A stretch of 64,000 nt of DNA from Eledone cirrhosa (taxonomy: Eukaryota): assembly GCA_964016885.1 (NCBI GenBank), contig OZ024741.1:381672001-381736000 (forward strand), in the 5' to 3' direction. Shown here piece after piece: positions 3,114 to 39,340 of this stretch. Position numbers and translations under genes: made by a program. The number at the start of each line of letters is the position of its first letter. Position 1 is the stretch's first letter. The notes beneath the pieces are model-generated. The model was not told where the DNA came from. It saw only the letters and a program-made list of their open reading frames with translations, and did not search any database.

Positions 3114-6100
3114 TTGACTTCTCTCAGAATAGGCAGCATAAATGCGCGTGGCCTGGGGTCTTCATTGAAGCAGGGCCACCTTCTCAACGACCTCAGGTCA
3201 CTAAACATAGATGTGCTGGCCATCAGCGAGACCAGAATCTCCGAAGCAGGAGCCTTTGCATCGATCTTCGGCGGCTACGATGTGTACGCATCTCCCAGCG
3301 GTCCTGGATCGGGGGGAGGGGGGCTGCTGTGCTTTTTCGGATAGGTTTGGATCTCGCCATACGGGCCATCTTCCTGGACCCAGAAGGTAAGTTGGTGGTG
3401 CTGGACGTGACCAGCATAGACGGGCCAGCTTCAGGCTAGTGCCCGTCTATGCGCCGACAGGTACAGGACGGCCTGATTTCTTCCGGCGTCTGGAGACCTT
3501 TCTTGGAACGTCCCACTCTTTAGTGTTAGTGGGCGACTGGAACGGGATCTTAGATGCACGTTGGGGCTGTGTCGGATTAGCGGATAGGGGAGGAGGGTGT
3601 AAAAGCCTCGCAAACATTCTCAGACGGTTTTAACTGTCTGACAGGTACTGTCTGTATTTCCCGAATGTGCCAATGTCGACATGGACAAACCGCATAGGGT
3701 CATCCATATCATATATATATAGGGTATTTTGTAGGGAAATAGATAGGTCTAGCATAGGCTGTCCACTATTTAAAATAGTCGACTACACGGACCACAAATT
3801 CGTGATCTGTGAGTTTGGCTTAGATAGGCTTCATAGACGAGGACCCGGCTACTGGAAGCTAAACGCGCCCTTACCAGCTCACAAAGCCTACAGAGACCGG
3901 ATTACCGAACTAGTTAATCGGGCGTTGACGGGGGCCATCGTCAACAACAAGTGGTGGTTTGCTCTGAAAAGAGTCATTAGAATAGAGTCCATTAGGTTTA
4001 GTAAGGCTTTAGATATAGAGAAAAATAGAGCAGAGGGAGACATAGTTAGAAAATTTGACGAGGCGGTTAGCAAAGGCATCGCGACTGACGTACTTGCGGC
4101 GAAATTGGCCCTTGAAAAATTCTTCAATGCAAGGCACGAAGGCTGCGTTGTCAGAGCTAGGGTGCGTGCTCTCAGACACGAGGGACGAAAGCCGTTCAAT
4201 GGGCCCGAGTGGCGGAGGCGCGTCGTGGCAACAAAGCCACGATCCGGTATTTGGTGGACCACGACGGGCGAATGCTACACGAATCCGGGAAAATGTGTGA
4301 AGCTTTTCAGCGACACTCCGCACAGCTGTTCGGGGGTAGCGGCGGGGCGGATCAAGGGATGTACTTTAGTGTCTACATCGACGAACTGCCGCAGCTCTCG
4401 GCCACTGAGGCGGTGTGTTGCGAAAAGCCCATAAAAGCCGCTGAAGTACGGGAGGCAATGACTGGCTGCACAAGGGGTAAATCACCTGGTTTGGATGGTC
4501 TGCCCAATAAACTTGACGTATAGATGCCAGACTTGTTCGGAGGACTCTTGGCGGTCGTCTACTGCAAATGGCAACAAAACGGGAGAATTCCCAGCTCTGT
4601 GAGCCGAGGAGTTGTGGCGCTGCTGAGAACGGATCCGAACAAGGGGGGTAACATAGATAATGTTAGACCCATATCTCTGCTAAACACAGAGTTCAAGATT
4701 TTGGCCAAGCTGCTAGCAAAGAGGTTGGCACTTGTCGTTGGTGGTCTGGTGGGAGAGGCACAGACATGCGCCATTCCCGACAGATCCATCCACGACAACC
4801 TCCACCTCATGCGATACATCGTAGAGAGGGTAGCTAGGGTACCTGGCACGGGTGGGTCTTTGATTAATTTAGATCAGTCGAAAGCCTTCGATAGGGTCGA
4901 CCATAGTTACCTAGCGGCGGTCCTGAGGGCGGCTGGCTTTGGGCCCGTCTTCAGAGGCTGGATCGCTGCCATGCAGAGCGACATCTGCTCTGTGGTAAGA
5001 GTGAACGTTCACCTTTCGGAACCGTTCAAACATCATGCGTTCAGTCCGCCAACGATGTCCCCTCTCGTCCCTCTTGTACTTATTGACTCTCGAGCCATTA
5101 CTGCACAAACTGGAGACGTTGAGGGGGTTCCCGCACGAACTAGGATGCGGAAGATCCGTGTCAGCATATGCGGACGATGTCATCGTAGTGGTGCCGAACG
5201 CCAAACACATCGAGGCGATCGGCACGACACTAAGAGAATACGAAGCGGTGACTGCAGCTGGCACCTGGAGAGGCAGGTCCATGCCGTCCAACAGCGTCGT
5301 CGGGCGCTGGACGGACGGACCGTTTAAATTGCTAGGGTTCTGGTTCGGTCCAGACCTTCAGACGGACAAAAATTGGAAGGAGGTGGCGAGCAGGGGGGCT
5401 TCTCTCACCCAGAAATGGGCAGAGATGAAGTTATCCCTGAAATGTCGAGCGGAGGTGGCTTACGCGTACATCGCGTCCGTCATCTACTACCGCCTGACCG
5501 TCGTACCTTGTCCTAAGCCTCGCCTGACTGCGCTGGAGCGTTTGCTCTTTCGCTTTTTGTGGAAGGTACGCGCCCCGATGGTCAGGCGGTCCATCTGCTG
5601 TCAACATCCGCTACGTGGAGGGCTGGGCATGCCGTGACTGATGATGCGTAGACATGCGCTCAGGCTACGACAACCCTCCGCCTCTTCCTCGACGGTGATC
5701 AGGTGTGGTCGCCGTTTGCTAGACACTCCTTTCCACAGCTCGTCTCCTTGACGGAGCTGCAGTCCAGGGTCAAGCGAAGACCGAGAGGGAGCGCTTGGAG
5801 ACTGGAAGGTTTCCAGGCGCTCACAGCCCTCGATCAATCGGGCAATGTGATCGGTGGAAACTCCACCTCGGCGTTCTATAGAGGATTAGTGGAGGGGAAG
5901 AGCGACGACGGACTTGGAGAAATTCTAGGCGTCGACGAAAATCAACTAGCCAATCTCTTCGGAAGGACTTTCGGGCCGGGGCCTATCGACGACTTCCAGA
6001 AATCTCTGGCCTGGCAGTGCTACCGAGGAGCCTTGCCAGTTCGGGATAAACTCTACAGGCATGGAGGTGCCGTCAGCCGGGCATGTACGAGATGCGCACA

Positions 6101-6500
6101 GGTCGATGAAACCGTCCTGCACGCACTCGTCCAGTGTCCGAGCATTGCTGATTTGTGGGTTTATGTCGAACACCTGCTGTCACGAGTTGGACGGATCCAG
6201 CTATCAGCTGAGTCCATCGTGAGGATTGACCCGCCCTCTTCCTTTAGCCGGGAAGGGCAGGCAATTTTTATCTGTCTGGTGGCCATGGCGAAAGAGATAG
6301 TATGGTGGAAACGTTTTAAAGGGCTGAAGACGAGCACTTACCTCTTCGGTGATGCCCTGATTAACTTTTTCAAGTTTCATTTGAAAAGGAAAATCAGGGT
6401 AAAGAGGGGAGTGCTCTCTTCCCAGCATTTTGTTGAAATATGGGTGAGAGAAGCAAGTATGGCCCGAGTGAATGGGCCTACTCTGCGTATGTGTCTCTAA
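3114..6500 (+). pseudogene. LINE ORF2 (APE endonuclease, reverse transcriptase, C-terminal Cys-His domain), disrupted
   Basis: SINARGL, ISETR, GDWNG, YTDH (APE); RPISLLN, DQSKAFDRVDH, YADD (RT); CTRC..ETVLHALVQC. Multiple frameshifts and stops, and a short deletion near 5250 relative to copy B. Confidence 0.92.
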
Positions 6501-6774
6501 ATTAAAGGTTGAAAACTGGGAGAGGGCACTTACCCTGGTGGTCAAGGTAACTGTGGCTTTTTAATGGGCTTTGTCCACAAATGTGCCTCGGAAGTCTCCC
6601 CCCTATTGGGAAATTTTTCGTTGTTATTTTTTGTTACATCCTGTTTTTGTTTTTTTTACATGCAGAAATGCCCATTTGTACCGTCCTGCATTGTCCTGTA
6701 CTGTCCTTAATGTCTACTTTATGTAAACCTTTGTGGTTAATAAAGGAAGTATTATTATTATTATTATTATTATT

Positions 6775-31395: not shown

Positions 31396-31865
31396 CAAAA
31401 TTAATAATATAAAATTATAGTCTAGAATTGTGTATGTATCACTTTTAGCCCTATTGGAATGTTAGGTAATATTACAAATATAAATACAGGTCTTATAGAA
31501 AAATAAAAAAAACATATACATGCTAATCTATATTAAGAATAGCACTTGTAATATACTCCTCAAAGTTATTGTTGACATATAGGAAGGAAATACAGATAAA
31601 GTAAAAATGATGTTAGAGATAGATTGTCATTAAGTAAACATAACATGCATAAATTAAATGCGACGAATAGAAACAAACGGCATAGAAAAAGAAACCTCGG
31701 AAAACAACAAAGCTAAAAACCTGGAGAGCATATATTTGGGTATGAGGAAAGTCCTTGCATTGGACTCTGCTAATGCATATCACACTATATATTTTGTGAG
31801 ATTACGCTGAAGATTCTATTTCTATTTCAACACTAATCTTTACCAGGCCGGTTCCAAATATACTT

Positions 31866-31929
<64 letters not shown>

Positions 31930-32496
31930 TGAATTAAAAAATAGAGCAAGAAACCAGGACTATCCGTAATCAGTGATCTTCTGACTATCATCGATATTTC
32001 TTCGCATTAAAGACCAGATACCTCAAGACAGTGCGAGCAATAACTAAATAAGTTGTTGGGATAAAAATAATTGGGTGGAGAGACATGTAAACAAACAGAA
32101 ATGTAAGGCAACGTAGAGAGAGGAAGATGTGAAAACATGTCAGTGATATATTGTGAGGTTAAGTTCTAGCAAATCAATGACGAGAAGAGAAGACGCGTCC
32201 AAACCTAGCGAAATGTGAGCGAGAAAAGGCTTTCACACAGGTCAGACGGGAGGAAGTGAGAGAGGGGGGAGTAGCAGAGAGTGAGTGAGTGAAAGTGTGA
32301 GGAAGAGGCCAGCCGAGAGAGGGTTACCAGCAGAGGGGGTGAATGAAAGTAAGAGATACAAGGAGAGAGAAGGCGGAGAGAGAAACAGGATACAGTAAGG
32401 TGGTATAAACAGACAGGTCACAGCGGAGGGAAAAAATATATATGAATGAAAAATGGCGTGCCTTTACACCATTACACCAACACATCACCCGCGGGT

Positions 32497-32567
32497 GATG
32501 TGTTGGTTTAATGGTAGCACAGTGGTTTAGATAACCAAAGATATGGGTTCGACTCCCGTGTACGTCA
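32497..32567 (+). ncRNA. tRNA-like cloverleaf within a repeat (tRNA pseudogene), followed by TTTTT
   Basis: GATGTGT/GTACGTC-A acceptor stem, D arm, TGGT(TTAGATA)ACCA, ATGGG(TTCGACT)CCCGT; T5 run about 10 nt downstream. Confidence 0.7.
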
Positions 32568-33560
32568 ATACTAATCTTTTTCCATTTTTCCGAGGGTTCT
32601 TAATATATATATATATATATATTATTCTCATATATATATATAACCCAACCAGGAGATGGGCCTATCAGAGTATTGACAAAGTTAAACACCTCAACAACAT
32701 GTGTACTCGTCTCTACCACACTAATTCGGAGTGCCTGCAGAGGTCACAGCCAAAGATGGCTGTCACCGAAATATATATAGCAGTGATAAACGAAGCGAAA
32801 TTTTAAATATTTGACATATTTATTTTAAATTTATTTTATATATACATATATACATGTATATGTTTTAATGTATGTGTAGGTATTTGTGTATATATGTATA
32901 TATGGGGGGGGGGGGGCATATGTGTATATGTATGTGTATATACGTGTATATGTGCGTGTATGTGTGTGTACATGCCCGCACATATACATTTGTGCGAGTG
33001 TGTGCGCGCGCGCGTAGGTGTGTGTGTGTGTGTCTGTGTGTGAGCATGTATATGTGGGAAGTAGGAAGTGTGAGAATGGTAAAGTAGTAATAACTGGCAA
33101 ACAGCTATAGGTGGTGACAGGTGACGCATGAAATAATACGGCATTTTGACCAGCCAATGTACAAACGCCAGTGGACAGAAGGATGATGGTGATGGGACTA
33201 TTGAACCAATGAAAAGGCCGAAATGACAGGATGCTAATATGTACTACAGATAAATAACAGGTGAGATGTTTGACCACACAACATATATCTGAACATCATT
33301 TGAATGCAGAGTCGGGCTCGATCTGTAACAGATCTTGCCTCGAGCTGATCGACGGTGAAACATATGTAATATGTTAATACATGTGATATGATGTAACACT
33401 GATTCTTCGTTCTTTATAATAATATATATATATATATATATATACGTATGTGTGTGGGGGGCGCGTGTGTGTGTCTATTTAAAAGGAAAACCGAAATAAC
33501 AACACAATCGGTATATGGAAGGAATATATTAGGTTAACGCTTGAAATAGCAGGAAGAGGG

Positions 33561-33595
33561 TCTTAACGTTTCTGAGCTAGTCCTTCATCAGGAGA
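33561..33595 (-). ncRNA. Minimal hammerhead motif (imperfect stems)
   Basis: UCUC-CUGAUGA-AGGACUAGCUCA-GAA-ACGU-U-AAGA; intact core boxes and a palindromic ACGU stem III. Confidence 0.55.
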
Positions 33596-33813
33596 AATAA
33601 TGAAAAATTAGATAGATTGAAGGGACGGGCGAGGTGGAATTGGAAGAAAAATGTCTTTAGATAAAAATAACAGGTCCATTCATGTTGCCTTAAATTTGTT
33701 GGATATTCAAATTGGATTTTCACTCTGAAACTGGATATAGACTCGGAGTTTTCCTGACTTTCCACCAGGAAATCTTTGCGTATCACTGACATTTGTTTAG
33801 CTTCTTGCATTAT

Positions 33814-33958
33814 TTGGCAGTATCGGTAGAGCATCGGACCCCATGCTTTTTGGCACAGAGTCACGGCTCCTTACGGTCTGAGTCCAAATCCTGCCGTGGA
33901 TAACCAGTAATGTAATGGGATAATTGCTGGTCTTGTGCCAAATAGTAGAAACGATTAT
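33814..33958 (+). mobile_element. SINE with core deleted
   Basis: TTGGCAGTATCGGTAGAGCATCGGA head joined to the ACCAGTAATG..TTGTGCCAAATAGTAGAAAC tail. Confidence 0.8.
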
Positions 33959-34464
33959 ATATATATATATATATACATTTGTGTGTGTGTTTATGTTTGT
34001 GTATATGTGTGTATATGTATATATAAACATACATATACACACAGACATTTTTATGTGTGTATGTGTCTGTACATTGATACATCCATACATATATAACATG
34101 ATAAACATTAGAAAGGTGCGTTTCGTGAAGTTATTTGGAAATACATTCAGTATGGATACCTTACATTTCAGGAAGTCAGCTTCAACACCTTATGAATGAA
34201 AATTCCTAAATAATATATTTTAAACTTATTTTCTGAATTGTCTGATATTATTGATTTTACCTTCCTTTCATCTAATCATTTACACACTTCAGTTCCGTTG
34301 TATTCCTTTAGGAAAGAATATATAATTAGATAATTCCACACATACACCTACGCACATACATACACACGCATATGCACACACACACATATATATGAATGTA
34401 TGTATATATATATATATGTATGTACATGTATATGTATGTACACTCACGCACTAACACACACACC

Positions 34465-34548
<84 letters not shown>

Positions 34549-36457
34549 CATACATATATATATATATATATCCGAGTTTCCCTATTGTTTTCACTTCATC
34601 GCCCACTTTTAAATGGAGAAAAAAACATTCATTTCCAACGCCCACCTGTATAGTAACAATTTAAGGGCATATATTCAGAGCCACTTAACTTTGTTGAGAT
34701 GACACCGACTATATTTAGGCGCTAGCATCTCACCTCCTCTGGGAGGCTTAATTAAGTGCAAGAATTGCAGGAGCTGGTGCACTAATGCGCCAACTTCCGC
34801 ATTCAGTAATAAAAAAAAAAGTGAGGTAGGCGTAAAACTAATCTCGCTATCTTCAATTCGGTATTCGTGCCAACCCTTACATATGGTCACGAATCTTGTG
34901 TAATGACTGGAAGAATACGAAAGCGAATAGAAGTGGCATAAATGGGTTTCTCCGAAGGGTCTTTAGAGTAACGTTACTCGATAGTGTGCGTAGCTCGAAG
35001 ATGAGAGCGTCAGCCCAGGTAGAGCCGCTAATTCTCCGAATTGACAGATCACAGCTACAATACTATTGACATGTATTGAGAATGTCTCAGGAAATAATCG
35101 TTGAACAGATTTTACGAGCAAATACAACCAGCAGCATAGCCAGTGGTAGAGCCCGAGCAAGATAATTGGATAACATCCATGGGCTTGGCTTGTCTCCTCC
35201 CTTGGGGATCCAGCCGGATCAGTTGGAGATGTTTTTTTTCTGACAGGCCCGATGGAAGGAGTGTTTGAATGTTCGATCCACATGACCGTCTGGGTAATAA
35301 GTGCGTGAAGAAGTAATCTTAAATCTGCCGTCGACAAATGTTGTTTGTGAGTCACACAGTGAACTGTTAAAGCAAGATGCGAATTTTGAAGTTTTAAGAT
35401 GGTATCCGCCTACCATCATTGGCGCTGCATCACAGGCGCAAGTAGCAATAGTGTTTAATGAGAGTTAATGTTCATTAGAAATAGCTTTAATACATCTAAA
35501 ATAGATGTACCATTTGAATCAATCAACAGCATCTCACAAATGCATATATATTTCATAAAAAGAAAAGAATATACACCATCATTTACATCTTTTAGTTGCC
35601 AACTTTTATTGAACATTCATAACTCCGCAGACTATACAAAAGGTGACGTCGGTGGCCATTTCATATAGTCGTTTTGACATTGTCTTGTTATTAAGTGGAA
35701 TTGTCTTGATATTTGTGTCATGAATGTTATGTATAATATTACAACCGAGAGAACTACATCAATAACAAATCGAAGTAATTTCTATCCTATAATGTGTGAC
35801 TGACCGGCCTTTGTGACCAGTAATGCAATGTTGTACACTAAAATCATCCCGTTATCATGATGCGTTGTTTACCTCTGAAATTCCGAGATCAATGATATTC
35901 TTTTTCGAATGAGGTCTTAAGTTGTAGGAAATATGATACAGATTTTCCTTGTGCTCTGTAAGCTTAGAATATAAAAGGTATATTAACAGCGAAGGCTTCG
36001 TGGCTTGGTTGCTAAATTTGGATACACATAAGACACATAGATAATTGACCACTATACGGAAAATCGATAAACCAATGCTGAATTGACGGAACATTTTATC
36101 AAACGGAAGCATTCCTGCGTTTAAAAATCGTGCAGTGCACTAAGAACATGGTAGGAGCCATAGACAACAAAAATTCTCGTTCAACTAGTTATGTTGTTAC
36201 TCAAAGACCCTTTTCAATAATCCACAACTACGTTGTAAATACTCGGCTATCATTACAATTGAACAACTTAAACTGGTTGTTTGTGTATATATGATAGAGC
36301 TATTGTGCTATGAACATGTCCTATCTTAGGGTTCCCATATTTTGTCAGGCAAGATTCCTTGTGTATGACATGTCTTCATAATTGTTAAACCTCACAGCAT
36401 GTGTCAAATTTATGATATCTCGATGCATGTGGCATTAACAAGTATGTATGTATTTAT

Positions 36458-36503
36458 GATCGTCCTGACGAAGACCAGTTGAGTTGAAAATGCATCGATG
36501 ATT
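36458..36503 (+). ncRNA. Type-I minimal hammerhead motif
   Basis: GAUCGUC-CUGACGA-A-GAC(CAGUUGA)GUU-GAAA-AUGCAU-C-GAUGAUU; 7-bp stem I, palindromic AUGCAU, one extra A. Confidence 0.7.
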
Positions 36504-36830
36504 GTCCCCCTTCTACTACCAGCCACAGCCTGGTGGCGATAGCTAACAGTGTGTTATTCATAGGTATGACTTTCTAAGTGTGTATTTATAAACATACCTC
36601 ATTTCTTTGGAAATACGAATTTCAAATACATATTTGAAACTAATGTCTAATTCTCTCTATCTATCTATCTACCTATCTATATATATATATGTGTGTGTGT
36701 AATTATGTTTTGAAACAGTGAGCGAGTTTGAAATTAGAAATATAAGCTTTCACCGTATTTTTTACTAAAGAAATGTGTTAGCCTGATAGTGGGGTTTAGA
36801 ACCCTCAGAGAAATGGGAAAAGATGAGTAT

Positions 36831-36901
36831 CAACGTACATGGAAGTCGAACCCACATCTTTGGTTATCCAGACCACTTTGATACCATTACAACAACACAT
36901 C
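36831..36901 (-). ncRNA. tRNA-like cloverleaf (pseudogene; anticodon position GGA)
   Basis: Reverse complement of the 37142-37212 motif, with GGTTCGACT B box. Confidence 0.6.
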
Positions 36902-37141
36902 ACCCATCTCCTTCAATTTAAATTAGAAGCTACAATCTTAGCAAGTAAATGACAAGTAAATATGTTTTGAAACATTTCTCTGATGGTTCTAAACCCCACT
37001 ATCAGGCTAAAAAATGTCTTTAGTCAAAAATACGGTGAAAGCTTTTATTTCTAATTTCAAACTCGCTCACGTTTTCAAAAATAATTACTTGTCTTTTACT
37101 TGCTCAGAATGTAGCTTCTAATTTGAATAGAATGAGAGGGT

Positions 37142-37212
37142 AATGTGTTGGTGTAATGGTAGCACAGTGGTCTGGATAACCAAAGATATGAGTTCGACTC
37201 CCATGTACGTCA
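37142..37212 (+). ncRNA. tRNA-like cloverleaf (tRNA-Gln-like D arm; anticodon position GGA) with Pol III terminator
   Basis: TGGTGTAATGGTAGCAC A box/D arm, TGGT(CTGGATA)ACCA, AGTTCGACTCC B box, TTTTT downstream. Confidence 0.7.
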
Positions 37213-37306
37213 ATACTCATCTTTTTCCATTTCTATGAGGGTTCTAAACCCCACTATCAAGCTAACAAATTTCTTTAGTAAAAAATACGGTGAAAGCTTA
37301 TATTTC

Positions 37307-37341
<35 letters not shown>

Positions 37342-37678
37342 CTAAGTCTGTGTGATCGCTTTCTTACTTGCTTGTCTGCAGTGTAACAGAGCCAAAACGG
37401 CGCATGATAGGAAGATACTTTGAACGGAACTTACCCCTGAAACGGAAATGCAAATGAAATAATACTAGTTTCGCGTAAATCGAAGCACGGTTGTCCGAGA
37501 TATGGGGCTTTCTTCGTACCCTCTTAAACAGAGAGAGAGAGTGAGAAAGTGAGAGAGAGAGAATGATAGAGAGAAAGAGATAGTGGTTGTGAGAGAGTAG
37601 ATTGAAAGAGAGACATAGAGAGAGGGAGAGAAGACAGATAAGAAGAATGGAAGAGAGAGAGCTGGTGATATTGTTACG

Positions 37679-37710
<32 letters not shown>

Positions 37711-37744
37711 AGTGTGTGTGTATATATATATATATGCGAGTGTG

Positions 37745-37780
<36 letters not shown>

Positions 37781-37834
37781 AATGGAATAGAATGAAACGA
37801 AATTTCATTTCTCACTCTTAGCACGGCACTTACT

Positions 37835-38260
37835 TAAATGTAAGTATGTATGTATACGTACATACATATATGTATACAGACGTACAGTAGCATGTATATA
37901 TATACATACAGGCACACATATATATATGCACGTATCAGTTTACCGAACATTTATTATAATGCTCGGTTTGTTCGTTTGTAAACAAACAAACAGCCTGACG
38001 GTGCTGACGATAGCTAATAAGCTTGAAACTAGTACATCGTTCCTGTGTCAGTGTTGAACAAAAAGGTGACGTGGTTGCCTAAATACTGTACGGCGTAATT
38101 CAGGCTGTTTGTTTGTTTACAAACGAACAAACCGAGCATTATAATAAATGTTCGGTAAACTGATACGTGCATATATATATATGTGTGCCTGTATGTATAT
38201 ATATACATGCTACTGTACGTCTGTATACATATATGTATGTACGTATACATACATACTTAC

Positions 38261-38265
<5 letters not shown>
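37835..38265. repeat. Near-perfect ~165-bp inverted repeat with ~100-bp spacer
   Basis: 37835-37998 is the reverse complement of 38100-38265, differing by one TA unit. Confidence 0.95.
37998..38040 (+). ncRNA. Minimal type-I hammerhead ribozyme
   Basis: ACGGUG-CUGACGA-UAGCU(AAUA)AGCUU-GAA-ACUAGU-A-CAUCGU; 6-bp stem I, palindromic ACUAGU stem III, GUA cleavage triplet. Confidence 0.85.
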
Positions 38266-38305
<40 letters not shown>

Positions 38306-38354
38306 AGTGTGTGTGTGTGTCTGTCTATGACTTGTGCATATATATCACAGACAC

Positions 38355-38409
<55 letters not shown>

Positions 38410-39340
38410 ACCACATACATATATATATATATATGCATACACACACAGACACAGTTATATATATATATATATACATACACACACGTATATATATCTGGAC
38501 TTTCCAGTTTCATTTCACATAACATTCATGTCTAGTTATTGAAAAATTATTGAACATGATTTTTATAAAATATTTTGAGGTGGAAGTGGCCCAATGGTTA
38601 ACGGGTGGTCTAGTAAACATTATATATCCGTCATTATTATAATCATCATCATCATGATGTTTAGTATCCTCAACATCATAATCATCACCGTATTTTATAC
38701 AGAGCTTACACTGCGGGGAACTTTATTCAACCGCTTTAAAGTGAAGACCATCATGGTTTTGCCATATTTGGACAGCATATCTTCGTTTACTATTAACCCA
38801 CATAAATGTTCTGTCAAGAGAATGACGTGGGCCTTTTGAGTTACACTGATGCTCGAATATATACACTCCACCATCCAATAATGACCACTCAGATTGCGTG
38901 TTGCTCAAATATTTTAGGCCATGCAGTAAATTATTTGTTCTACTGCTGGCTGATAATTTGATAAATGCTACCCTGCTTTCTTACTGTTCCCAAGTCGGAA
39001 GCCAGCCAGTATGACGTCAGGATCTAGTTATAAATCACGTCACCAAACTTAGTGAACGTACGAGTGTGTTCTACTGTCTCTCAGACTTCCATAAACACTT
39101 CATAATTTACACACTTCACAACCAGTATATTTTGCTTTGTCAAAACTTCATTACGTTAAAAACCGGACCTTTTCTAATTTAATGTTAATGAGAGCAGTAA
39201 CTATGCCATGACAGATATGTGGTACCATTGTGGACTGCAACATTTACTGACTTTATCTTCATCAGCAGTATCTGAACTCTTTTTAACATGCAATCAACAT
39301 CTATTTCAGGAACGCCCGGAAGCAACATATCCACGTACAT

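Follow-up and report, generated by a model that had tools for sequence, protein, structure and literature searches.

A composite insertion of a 256-nt tRNA-bearing unit

The DNA analysed here, called the window below, is a stretch of 64,000 nucleotides (nt) from the genome of Eledone cirrhosa (assembly GCA_964016885.1, contig OZ024741.1, positions 381,672,001 to 381,736,000 of the forward strand), and coordinates without a contig refer to it. Positions 36699-37311 of the window are one composite insertion inside a (TA)n/(TG)n microsatellite, built from copies of a 256-nt unit that carries a tRNA-like part and belongs to a dispersed repeat family. An earlier note on this DNA had described a tRNA-carrying unit of ~255 bp in tandem and inverted copies, circularly permuted, inverted at ~36972 and set in (TA)n. 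A repeat search together with a map of the locus onto the family consensus, which was derived from only 26 full units, confirmed each of these points.

The insertion has two arms. The left arm (36699-36974, minus strand) runs from unit position 116 to 1 and continues from 254 to 98 of the preceding unit; its outer piece (36699-36815) maps to unit 1-116 and is 96.6% identical to the consensus, and its inner piece (36818-36974) maps to unit 98-254 with 93.6%. The right arm (36973-37311, plus strand) holds 1.33 units, namely a full unit 1-256 (36973-37227) and a second piece with unit 1-83 (37228-37311) in the consensus alignment. In the classification given below, the left arm is of the long-end type, with a tail of ~35 nt at its outer end, and the right arm is of the short-end type, with its end ...TTTCTAAT(T) lying against (TA)n. 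The arms meet head to head at 36972-36974, where their 5′ ends, at unit 98 and ~1, overlap by 2 nt. The repeat search of the window detected this layout as a direct repeat of 84 nt with a spacing of 255 (36973-37056 and 37228-37311, 92%) and as two inverted arms, 174 nt and 108 nt long and each 93% complementary. The target microsatellite consists of (TA)n and then (TG)5 on its left side (36678-36698) and of (TA)14.5 on its right side (37311-37339).

ARAGORN made three tRNA-like calls, at 36830-36902 (minus strand, anticodon position GGA), 37141-37213 (plus strand, GGA) and 32496-32568 (plus strand, AGA), and all three exceed the gathering score of 29 bits of the Rfam tRNA family RF00005, in line with the cloverleafs noted earlier. 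The left-arm cloverleaf (36831-36901, minus strand) scores 34.6 bits and the right-arm cloverleaf (37142-37212, plus strand) 39.3 bits. Downstream of the latter, a TTTTT run that resembles a terminator of RNA polymerase III (Pol III) was found at 37222-37226 (plus strand), 9-10 nt past the tRNA-like 3′ end and close to the ~10 nt reported before; it is kept in the family consensus, and the left-arm cloverleaf has a TTTTT behind it as well. The ~150 bp of conserved sequence upstream of the tRNA-like part, also reported, is the rest of the tandem unit. The 3′ body contains a small conserved motif with a predicted hairpin of a 5-bp stem and a 3-nt loop (37239-37251, plus strand; minus-arm copy at 36792-36804).

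The third call belongs to a second insertion of the family at 32468-32603. There, an inverted mini-arm of 23 nt (32468-32490, minus strand, unit 167-189) and a main arm (32493-32603, plus strand) meet at a palindromic junction, CCCG/CGGG. The main arm contains a tRNA-like part at 32497-32567 (plus strand, 37.5 bits) with AGA at the anticodon position. It begins 4-5 nt upstream of the 5′ end of this part and extends to about unit 22, followed by (TA)n.

Family size and sampling

The genome searched, 3.0 Gb in size, was that of the window itself. With the 339-nt plus arm as query, 2873 first-look candidates were obtained, and the 80 that were scored show 82-93% identity, the query's own locus excepted. 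Exact words were then counted: a 22-mer of unit 222-243 occurs 1481 times, a 24-mer of unit 92-115 in the tail 514 times and a 20-mer of unit 53-72 261 times, while each reversed control gave 0. More than 1400 copies are thus scattered over many contigs. Their identity to the consensus has a median of ~90% and ranges from 81 to 97%. The possibility that the tail is common to something more abundant was rejected: the tail 24-mer is rarer than the tRNA 22-mer, and all 30 loci returned with it belong to the family. Ten occurrences of the 20-mer fall within 15 kb of contig 1 (263,150,884-263,165,516), in four clusters of two or three, which probably represent a local segmental duplication carrying an insertion.

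Insertions were compared in a positional sample drawn from contig 1, for which the 100 occurrences of the 22-mer listed first were taken. These form 82 distinct clusters that contain the word; clusters lacking it and duplicates from overlapping loci were dropped. Without one long array (L115), which was treated separately, the sample comprises 81 insertions. Inner junctions were collected from all samples (family loci L001-L030, L061-L146 and L171-L270). Arm ends were placed by BLAST with ungapped or banded extension and are accurate to about 2-3 nt, and sampling by exact words is biased to younger copies and particular subfamilies.

Insertion architecture

Two arms are present in 53 of the 81 sampled insertions, always in the order minus then plus with the 3′ ends outward, and the other 28 are single-armed. 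All samples together yielded 117 distinct inner junctions, every one of them head to head, and no tail-to-tail junction. An overlap of 1-5 nt is present at 50 of them, 5 are blunt and 45 contain filler. Arms longer than one unit (>256 nt) are frequent (54 of 134).

The 3′ ends of the arms are discrete, at about unit 82 or 116-119, whereas the 5′ ends are variable. Among refined 3′ ends the commonest positions are unit 82 (29 arms), 119 (18), 116 (10) and 75 (10), followed by 118 (8), 117 (7) and 126 (7). When ends at unit 105-130 are classed as long and those at unit 40-92 as short, the two classes are 33-37 nt apart, and they are combined within insertions in a non-random manner. Of 47 classifiable pairs, 40 are long with short, 7 are short with short and none is long with long (chi-square p = 4e-7), although 8.5 pairs of the last kind are expected under independence. 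The arms of one insertion are therefore not mirror copies: their 5′ ends are usually unequal and their 3′ ends follow this long/short rule. They do appear to be of common origin, agreeing on average at 10.1 of 11 subfamily sites compared with 7.2 for arms of different insertions. Agreement at six or fewer sites was seen in 0 of 74 pairs from the same insertion and in 33% of 2000 random pairs.

A (TA)3 stretch lies within 14 nt of the left end in 59 and of the right end in 64 of the 81 insertions, against a background of 4.5% of window positions and 13.9% in 24 other loci (20 loci of Penelope-like elements and 4 array flanks). (TA)3 is missing from both sides in only six insertions, and in none of these six was a convincing target site duplication (TSD) observed. 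The element has no 3′ tail of its own, since ends at unit 82 or 116-119 touch the target (TA)n directly (a 3′-end library of long interspersed nuclear elements, LINEs, was not compared). Another abundant tRNA-derived repeat, a short interspersed nuclear element (SINE) with the AT-rich tail ...AACAATTA(TTA), abuts 5′-truncated family copies (L094, L123 and L019); tails of this SINE may seed AT-rich microsatellites in which the family lands.

At unit 231-239, symmetric junctions recur where the sequence contains the self-complementary words CATG, GTAC and ACGT (L173, L179, L180, L187, L196, L197 and others). Such junctions are to be expected on palindromic words, because identical ends of complementary DNA (cDNA) can anneal to each other only through a palindromic word.

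Multi-unit arms

The longest arm was found in a single insertion on contig 1 (131,458,928-131,465,827; L115, L167 and L168), where a plus arm of 6.5 kb contains ~25 units. It is accompanied by an inverted minus arm of 377 bp, and the outer ends, at unit 66 and 126, are canonical. Pairwise identity among its 24 full units is 0.81-0.84 at each lag between 1 and 8, and their identity to a consensus of the array itself is 0.89. The units are equally diverged at all distances, and the array therefore resembles a block of satellite DNA that one event produced. This suggests that the units of the arm arose together and not by stepwise local duplication.

The earlier note had proposed that the element is copied from a circular or multimeric template. 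A template longer than one unit is indicated by the 54 long arms and the 25-unit array, which support multimers; they do not demonstrate a circle, nor is one required. Instead of using a multimeric template, the enzyme might switch templates repeatedly through the terminally repeated part. Multi-unit arms always retain the tRNA, and no tRNA-less array with a period of 185 nt was found among ~170 loci.

Identity and constraint of the tRNA-like part

Over 60 family loci, ARAGORN made 53 calls in 42 loci, with GGA at the anticodon position in 30, CGA in 15 and other triplets in 8. GGA and AGA would be serine anticodons and yet the variable loop is short, as the earlier note had stated. Functional tRNA-Ser is characterized by a long variable arm. 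With a length of 71-74 nt, a variable loop of 4 nt and an anticodon that is not constant, the tRNA-like part of the family does not correspond to a functional tRNA-Ser; it is not a working, decoding tRNA. Its D arm may resemble that of tRNA-Gln, as the earlier note had suggested.

The tRNA-like part is nevertheless constrained at the level of the source copies. In 137 copies, common variants (at least 15%) occur at 0 of 51 columns within unit 171-221 and at 15 of 137 columns elsewhere (Fisher p = 0.012), with the 22 columns that served as search word excluded. If the threshold is set to at least 10%, unit 171-221 contains two variants only, both in the anticodon loop. This loop (unit 201-207) is the sole tRNA-like stretch with common variants, and two of the three versions seen are 6-nt palindromes.

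Free-energy folding gave values no better than those of shuffled sequences (z = -0.26, +0.34 and +1.45), and the cloverleaf is not the minimum-free-energy fold of the tRNA-like copy in the window. Among 101 Rfam matches at E ≤ 1 over positions 31500-38500, no ribozyme family was found, the type I hammerhead included.

Where the arms begin

The 5′ ends of the arms cluster at the start of the tRNA-like part: 42 of 134 arms end at unit 160-179 (p = 2e-15), and the tRNA start is the largest 5′-end class of tRNA-containing arms. When arms were anchored in the 3′ part of the tRNA, 35 of 91 end between -11 and +9 of its 5′ end. Of these 35, 19 lie 1-9 nt upstream and none lies at the predicted first base (171), with modes at 170 and 173; blunt perfect palindromes at 170/170 were seen in two loci (L099 and L135).

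Other anchors gave other profiles. Of 88 arms anchored at unit 53-72, 37 stop before the tRNA-like part and 51 reach it (at about unit 239). Of the latter, 23 stop at 229-236 and 4 near the anticodon loop; four apparent 5′ ends at 211 proved to be alignment artefacts and are counted within 229-236. Only 2 of the 24 arms in this sample that reach the tRNA start stop there. The anchor at unit 92-115 yielded 23 arms, 8 of which stop near unit 226-235, that is, at the 229-236 hot spot, and again 2 of the 8 arms reaching the tRNA start stop at it. Within the tRNA, 5′ ends lie mostly in loops (20 of 27, p = 4e-4). We do not build on this bias because self-complementary tetranucleotides lie exactly where the internal stops are most frequent, at 229-236.

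The earlier note had left two roles for the tRNA-like part, a promoter or a processing signal for RNase P and RNase Z in place of a ribozyme. The processing signal was not borne out. An RNase P signature was not detected, as no 5′ end among the 91 tRNA-3′-anchored arms is exactly at unit 171, the predicted first mature base; nor was an RNase Z signature, since 3 of 88 ends lie at 240-242 with no peak at 242. Ends that lie a few nt upstream of the tRNA agree better with initiation by Pol III than with a cut by RNase P. For the promoter, the 35 of 91 ends near the tRNA start, several of which extend upstream in the manner of a Pol III leader, provide partial support.

Comparison with Penelope-like elements

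The architecture described above is the one seen in Penelope-like elements (PLEs), as the earlier note had proposed with regard to the inverted and tandem copies. For PLEs that bear an endonuclease, including Naiad, Craig et al. (2021, PMC8557442) describe strong 5′ truncation, partial tandems that form pseudo-long terminal repeats (pLTRs), an inverted 5′-truncated copy adjoining the 5′ end, and a tail of 30-40 bp that is often present at one end only. The same source gives (TA)n as the preferred target of Naiads and a canonical hammerhead as absent from them. The 256-nt family shares the 5′ truncation, the pLTR-like tandems, the inverted copy, the one-sided tail, the bias to (TA)n and the lack of a canonical hammerhead. 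It differs in that its unit is too short for an open reading frame with reverse transcriptase (RT) and GIY-YIG endonuclease, so that it can be a passenger at most, and in that it carries a tRNA-like part plus a terminator-like T run. That the element is non-autonomous, as the earlier note held, is supported.

PLEs are abundant in the same genome. The GIY-YIG Pfam model gave 10,595 first-look candidates, and all 150 that were scored pass the cut-off. One of the 20 loci chosen for their long reading frames (L157, contig 1: 97,883,900-97,893,899) contains a 3266-bp palindrome at locus positions 3360-6625 with 99.7% identity. It consists of two 3′ parts of a GIY-YIG PLE, which lie in (TA)n in head-to-head orientation, and its outer ends differ in length by ~59 nt. 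A second locus (L156) has a similar palindrome with 97.2%. The protein-coding elements of this genome therefore leave the same footprint as the 256-nt family. One PLE family (L149-L153 and L156) has its end in a compound microsatellite, (CA)n(TA)n, ~200 nt past the stop codon, and PLE families of the genome thus differ in the repeat they adjoin.

Sequence common to the unit and these PLEs was not detected. Comparison of the unit with 50 PLE loci by blastn (word 7) gave matches of at most 26 nt and by nhmmer (--max, 26-copy profile) E-values of at least 4.8, or nothing. The small hairpin motif is absent from the compared PLE loci except for one unrelated match (L047), and the 3′ ends of 18 PLE loci, inspected by eye, are unlike the unit. 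Likewise, no chimeric insertion with a family arm joined to a PLE arm was found among the 28 single-arm insertions, whose neighbouring repeats are target context.

Other features of the window

Two Rfam matches to MIR7533 at 36877-37166 (60.7 and 58.4 bits) were rejected, as they are far under the gathering score of 230 and reflect the long inverted repeat. A palindrome of ~430 bp at 37835-38265 is unrelated to the 256-nt family. Its arms contain microsatellite-like sequence and are 100% complementary between 37835-37927 and 38173-38265 and 92% between 37895-37998 and 38100-38203; its centre of ~100 bp is unique.

Proposed mechanism and alternatives

We consider it probable that the sequence at 36699-37311 is an insertion of a protein-less family bearing a tRNA-like part that was reverse-transcribed into (TA)n by the RT and GIY-YIG endonuclease of a PLE, not by the machinery of a LINE. 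In the mechanism we propose, a double-strand break in (TA)n would offer two 3′-OH ends, and each would prime a cDNA on RNA from a single source. The strict head-to-head polarity would then be explained, because two target-primed cDNAs start at the two 3′-OH ends of the break. The long end would come from a cDNA primed near the 3′ end of the RNA and the short end from one primed further in, where a UAAU- or AUAU-type sequence may pair with the TA primer. The 3′ ends of the cDNAs would then pair, often by a microhomology of 1-5 nt, and be filled in. Arms of more than one unit may derive from multimeric templates or from repeated template switching, and the tRNA-like part would provide an internal promoter for Pol III and in this way define the 5′ end of the RNA. 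By analogy with SINEs and with LTR elements of the Cassandra/Helenus type, such a Pol III head would be the likeliest role of the tRNA-like part.

Several observations weigh against this reading. An autonomous partner was not found in the comparison, which covered 30 GIY-YIG loci with a length of 3.3 kb and a further 20 with a length of 10 kb. All 20 of the 10-kb loci have a C-terminal endonuclease, and Naiad-type elements, with an N-terminal one, lay outside the sample. Dependence on PLEs is accordingly read from architecture alone. TSDs are unreadable within (TA)n, with a single candidate of 8 bp (L021). When the anchor lay outside the tRNA, 32 arms extended as far as the tRNA 5′ end and only 4 of these stop at it, and the commonest stop in the unit 53-72 sample is 229-236 (23 of 88), the site of the self-complementary CATG, GTAC and ACGT; the 5′-end profile therefore depends on subfamily and sampling. 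Finally, the conserved TTTTT 9-10 nt past the tRNA-like part should terminate a large share of Pol III transcripts ahead of the 3′ region, which is present in every arm.

Three other explanations were weighed. The tandem transcripts of the family might be cut by RNase P and RNase Z into a free unit-length or circular RNA that is copied round and round, as in a retrozyme. This would agree with the 54 of 134 arms that exceed one unit, with the star-like divergence of the 25-unit arm and with the lack of a ribozyme match at E ≤ 1, given which another kind of processing would be needed; moreover, animal retrozymes are argued to be non-autonomous derivatives of PLEs by Li, Clavereau and Pollet (2026, bioRxiv 10.64898/2026.07.22.740005). 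However, the 5′ ends do not single out the cleavage sites, being spread over 162-178 with none at unit 171 and 3 of 88 at 240-242, the 3′ ends at 82 and 116-119 correspond to no tRNA boundary, and neither a multi-unit arm lacking the tRNA nor a tRNA-less array of 185-nt period occurs in the ~170 loci. We therefore regard such a processed template as unlikely. An ordinary tRNA-derived SINE, depending on a LINE that targets (TA)n and inverted by twin priming of the L1 kind, would account for the third or so of tRNA-containing arms that begin at the tRNA 5′ end and for the apparently intact A/B-box region. In the L1 model of twin priming, the long arm is expected to start just past the end of the short arm. 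The insertion in the window fits this model on one RNA, as its short arm ends at 83 and its long arm starts at 98, but across the family only 10 of 40 pairs do so, with 10.3 expected by chance (p = 0.60), and twin priming on one contiguous RNA is not supported. The inverted pairs over the same 3′ region (53 of 81), the one-sided tail of ~35 nt and the frequent multi-unit arms also speak against a LINE, and to our knowledge none of the three is a feature of LINE-driven SINE insertions. Furthermore, an A-rich or LINE-like tail was not observed (with no LINE 3′-end library compared), and GIY-YIG PLE copies of the same genome show the same layout as the family. The earlier note had allowed for a normal SINE. 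A start at the tRNA 5′ end is indeed common among the copies, but a LINE-like tail and a demonstrable TSD are lacking, and a SINE of this ordinary kind seems quite unlikely to us.

The family could also be a repeat made at the level of DNA, such as a satellite, a fold-back or MITE-type (miniature inverted-repeat) transposon, or palindromes formed at fragile (TA)n, with the tRNA-like part as a passive passenger. Such a repeat would be compatible with the 6.5-kb tandem array, the long inverted repeats and RNA fold energies no better than those of shuffled sequence. On the other hand, both outer ends are the same unit end in discrete classes, the inner ends form a spectrum of 5′ truncation, and terminal inverted repeats with a fixed extent are absent. 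Units of the array are no more alike when they are closer, and the copies, more than 1400 in number, are spread over many contigs. The element is also not an internal part of a DNA transposon, which the earlier note had named as a possible outcome. An origin at the DNA level is thus highly improbable, and reverse transcription by PLE enzymes remains our preferred explanation.

Relation to other elements

The family resembles tRNA-derived SINEs, as generally known, in its tRNA-related part, the intact box A and box B, the high copy number and the many copies that start at or just before the tRNA. It is distinguished from them by the lack of a LINE-type or A-rich tail, the T5 run directly after the tRNA, the ~50 nt conserved before the tRNA in each tandem unit and the PLE-type insertion architecture. 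SINEs are defined by their dependence on LINEs. We see a somewhat less than even chance that the family represents a class of SINEs dependent on PLEs instead, composed of a Pol III tRNA head and a PLE-recognised body, and that some ten thousand insertions record PLE integration.

A Pol III-type sequence is also carried by the TRIMp3 elements Cassandra, Helenus and Ajax, non-autonomous LTR (long terminal repeat) retrotransposons whose LTR contains a sequence resembling 5S RNA or tRNA; as described by Kojima (2024, PMC10886601), they have LTRs, a primer binding site (PBS), a polypurine tract (PPT) and fixed TSDs of 4-5 bp and depend on LTR elements. In contrast, the 256-nt family has PLE-type ends and a microsatellite target, and its head-to-head arms are not LTR-like (PBS and PPT were not searched for). 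Also comparable are the Chlamys MRC1-type elements, described as non-autonomous PLE derivatives in PMC8557442, and the animal non-LTR retrozymes, for which the same origin has been argued (bioRxiv 10.64898/2026.07.22.740005). Like these, the family is short and protein-less, is often present in head-to-tail multiple copies and is thought to borrow PLE enzymes. Those elements have 3′ ends or a pLTR common to autonomous PLEs, or type I hammerheads, whereas the family has neither, as far as the comparison with 50 PLE loci reaches, and bears a tRNA-like head instead.

Implications

A non-autonomous PLE that bears a tRNA or is driven by Pol III was not found described in the literature searched, with Repbase, Dfam and subscription journals outside the search. 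The only non-autonomous partners of PLEs that we know of are ribozyme-bearing retrozymes and a few algal elements. Repeat annotation is likely to misfile elements of the present kind as tRNA genes, unclassified SINEs or satellites. A short and abundant family provides junctions in numbers that autonomous PLEs rarely allow, and the polarity, the long/short rule, the shared source of the arms and the microhomology can be read from them. These numbers constrain models of the PLE integration cycle, which is still unsolved. If our interpretation is true, the strategy of combining a small-RNA promoter with a borrowed reverse transcriptase would reach a third class of retroelements, after LINEs, with their SINEs, and LTR elements, with Cassandra and Helenus.

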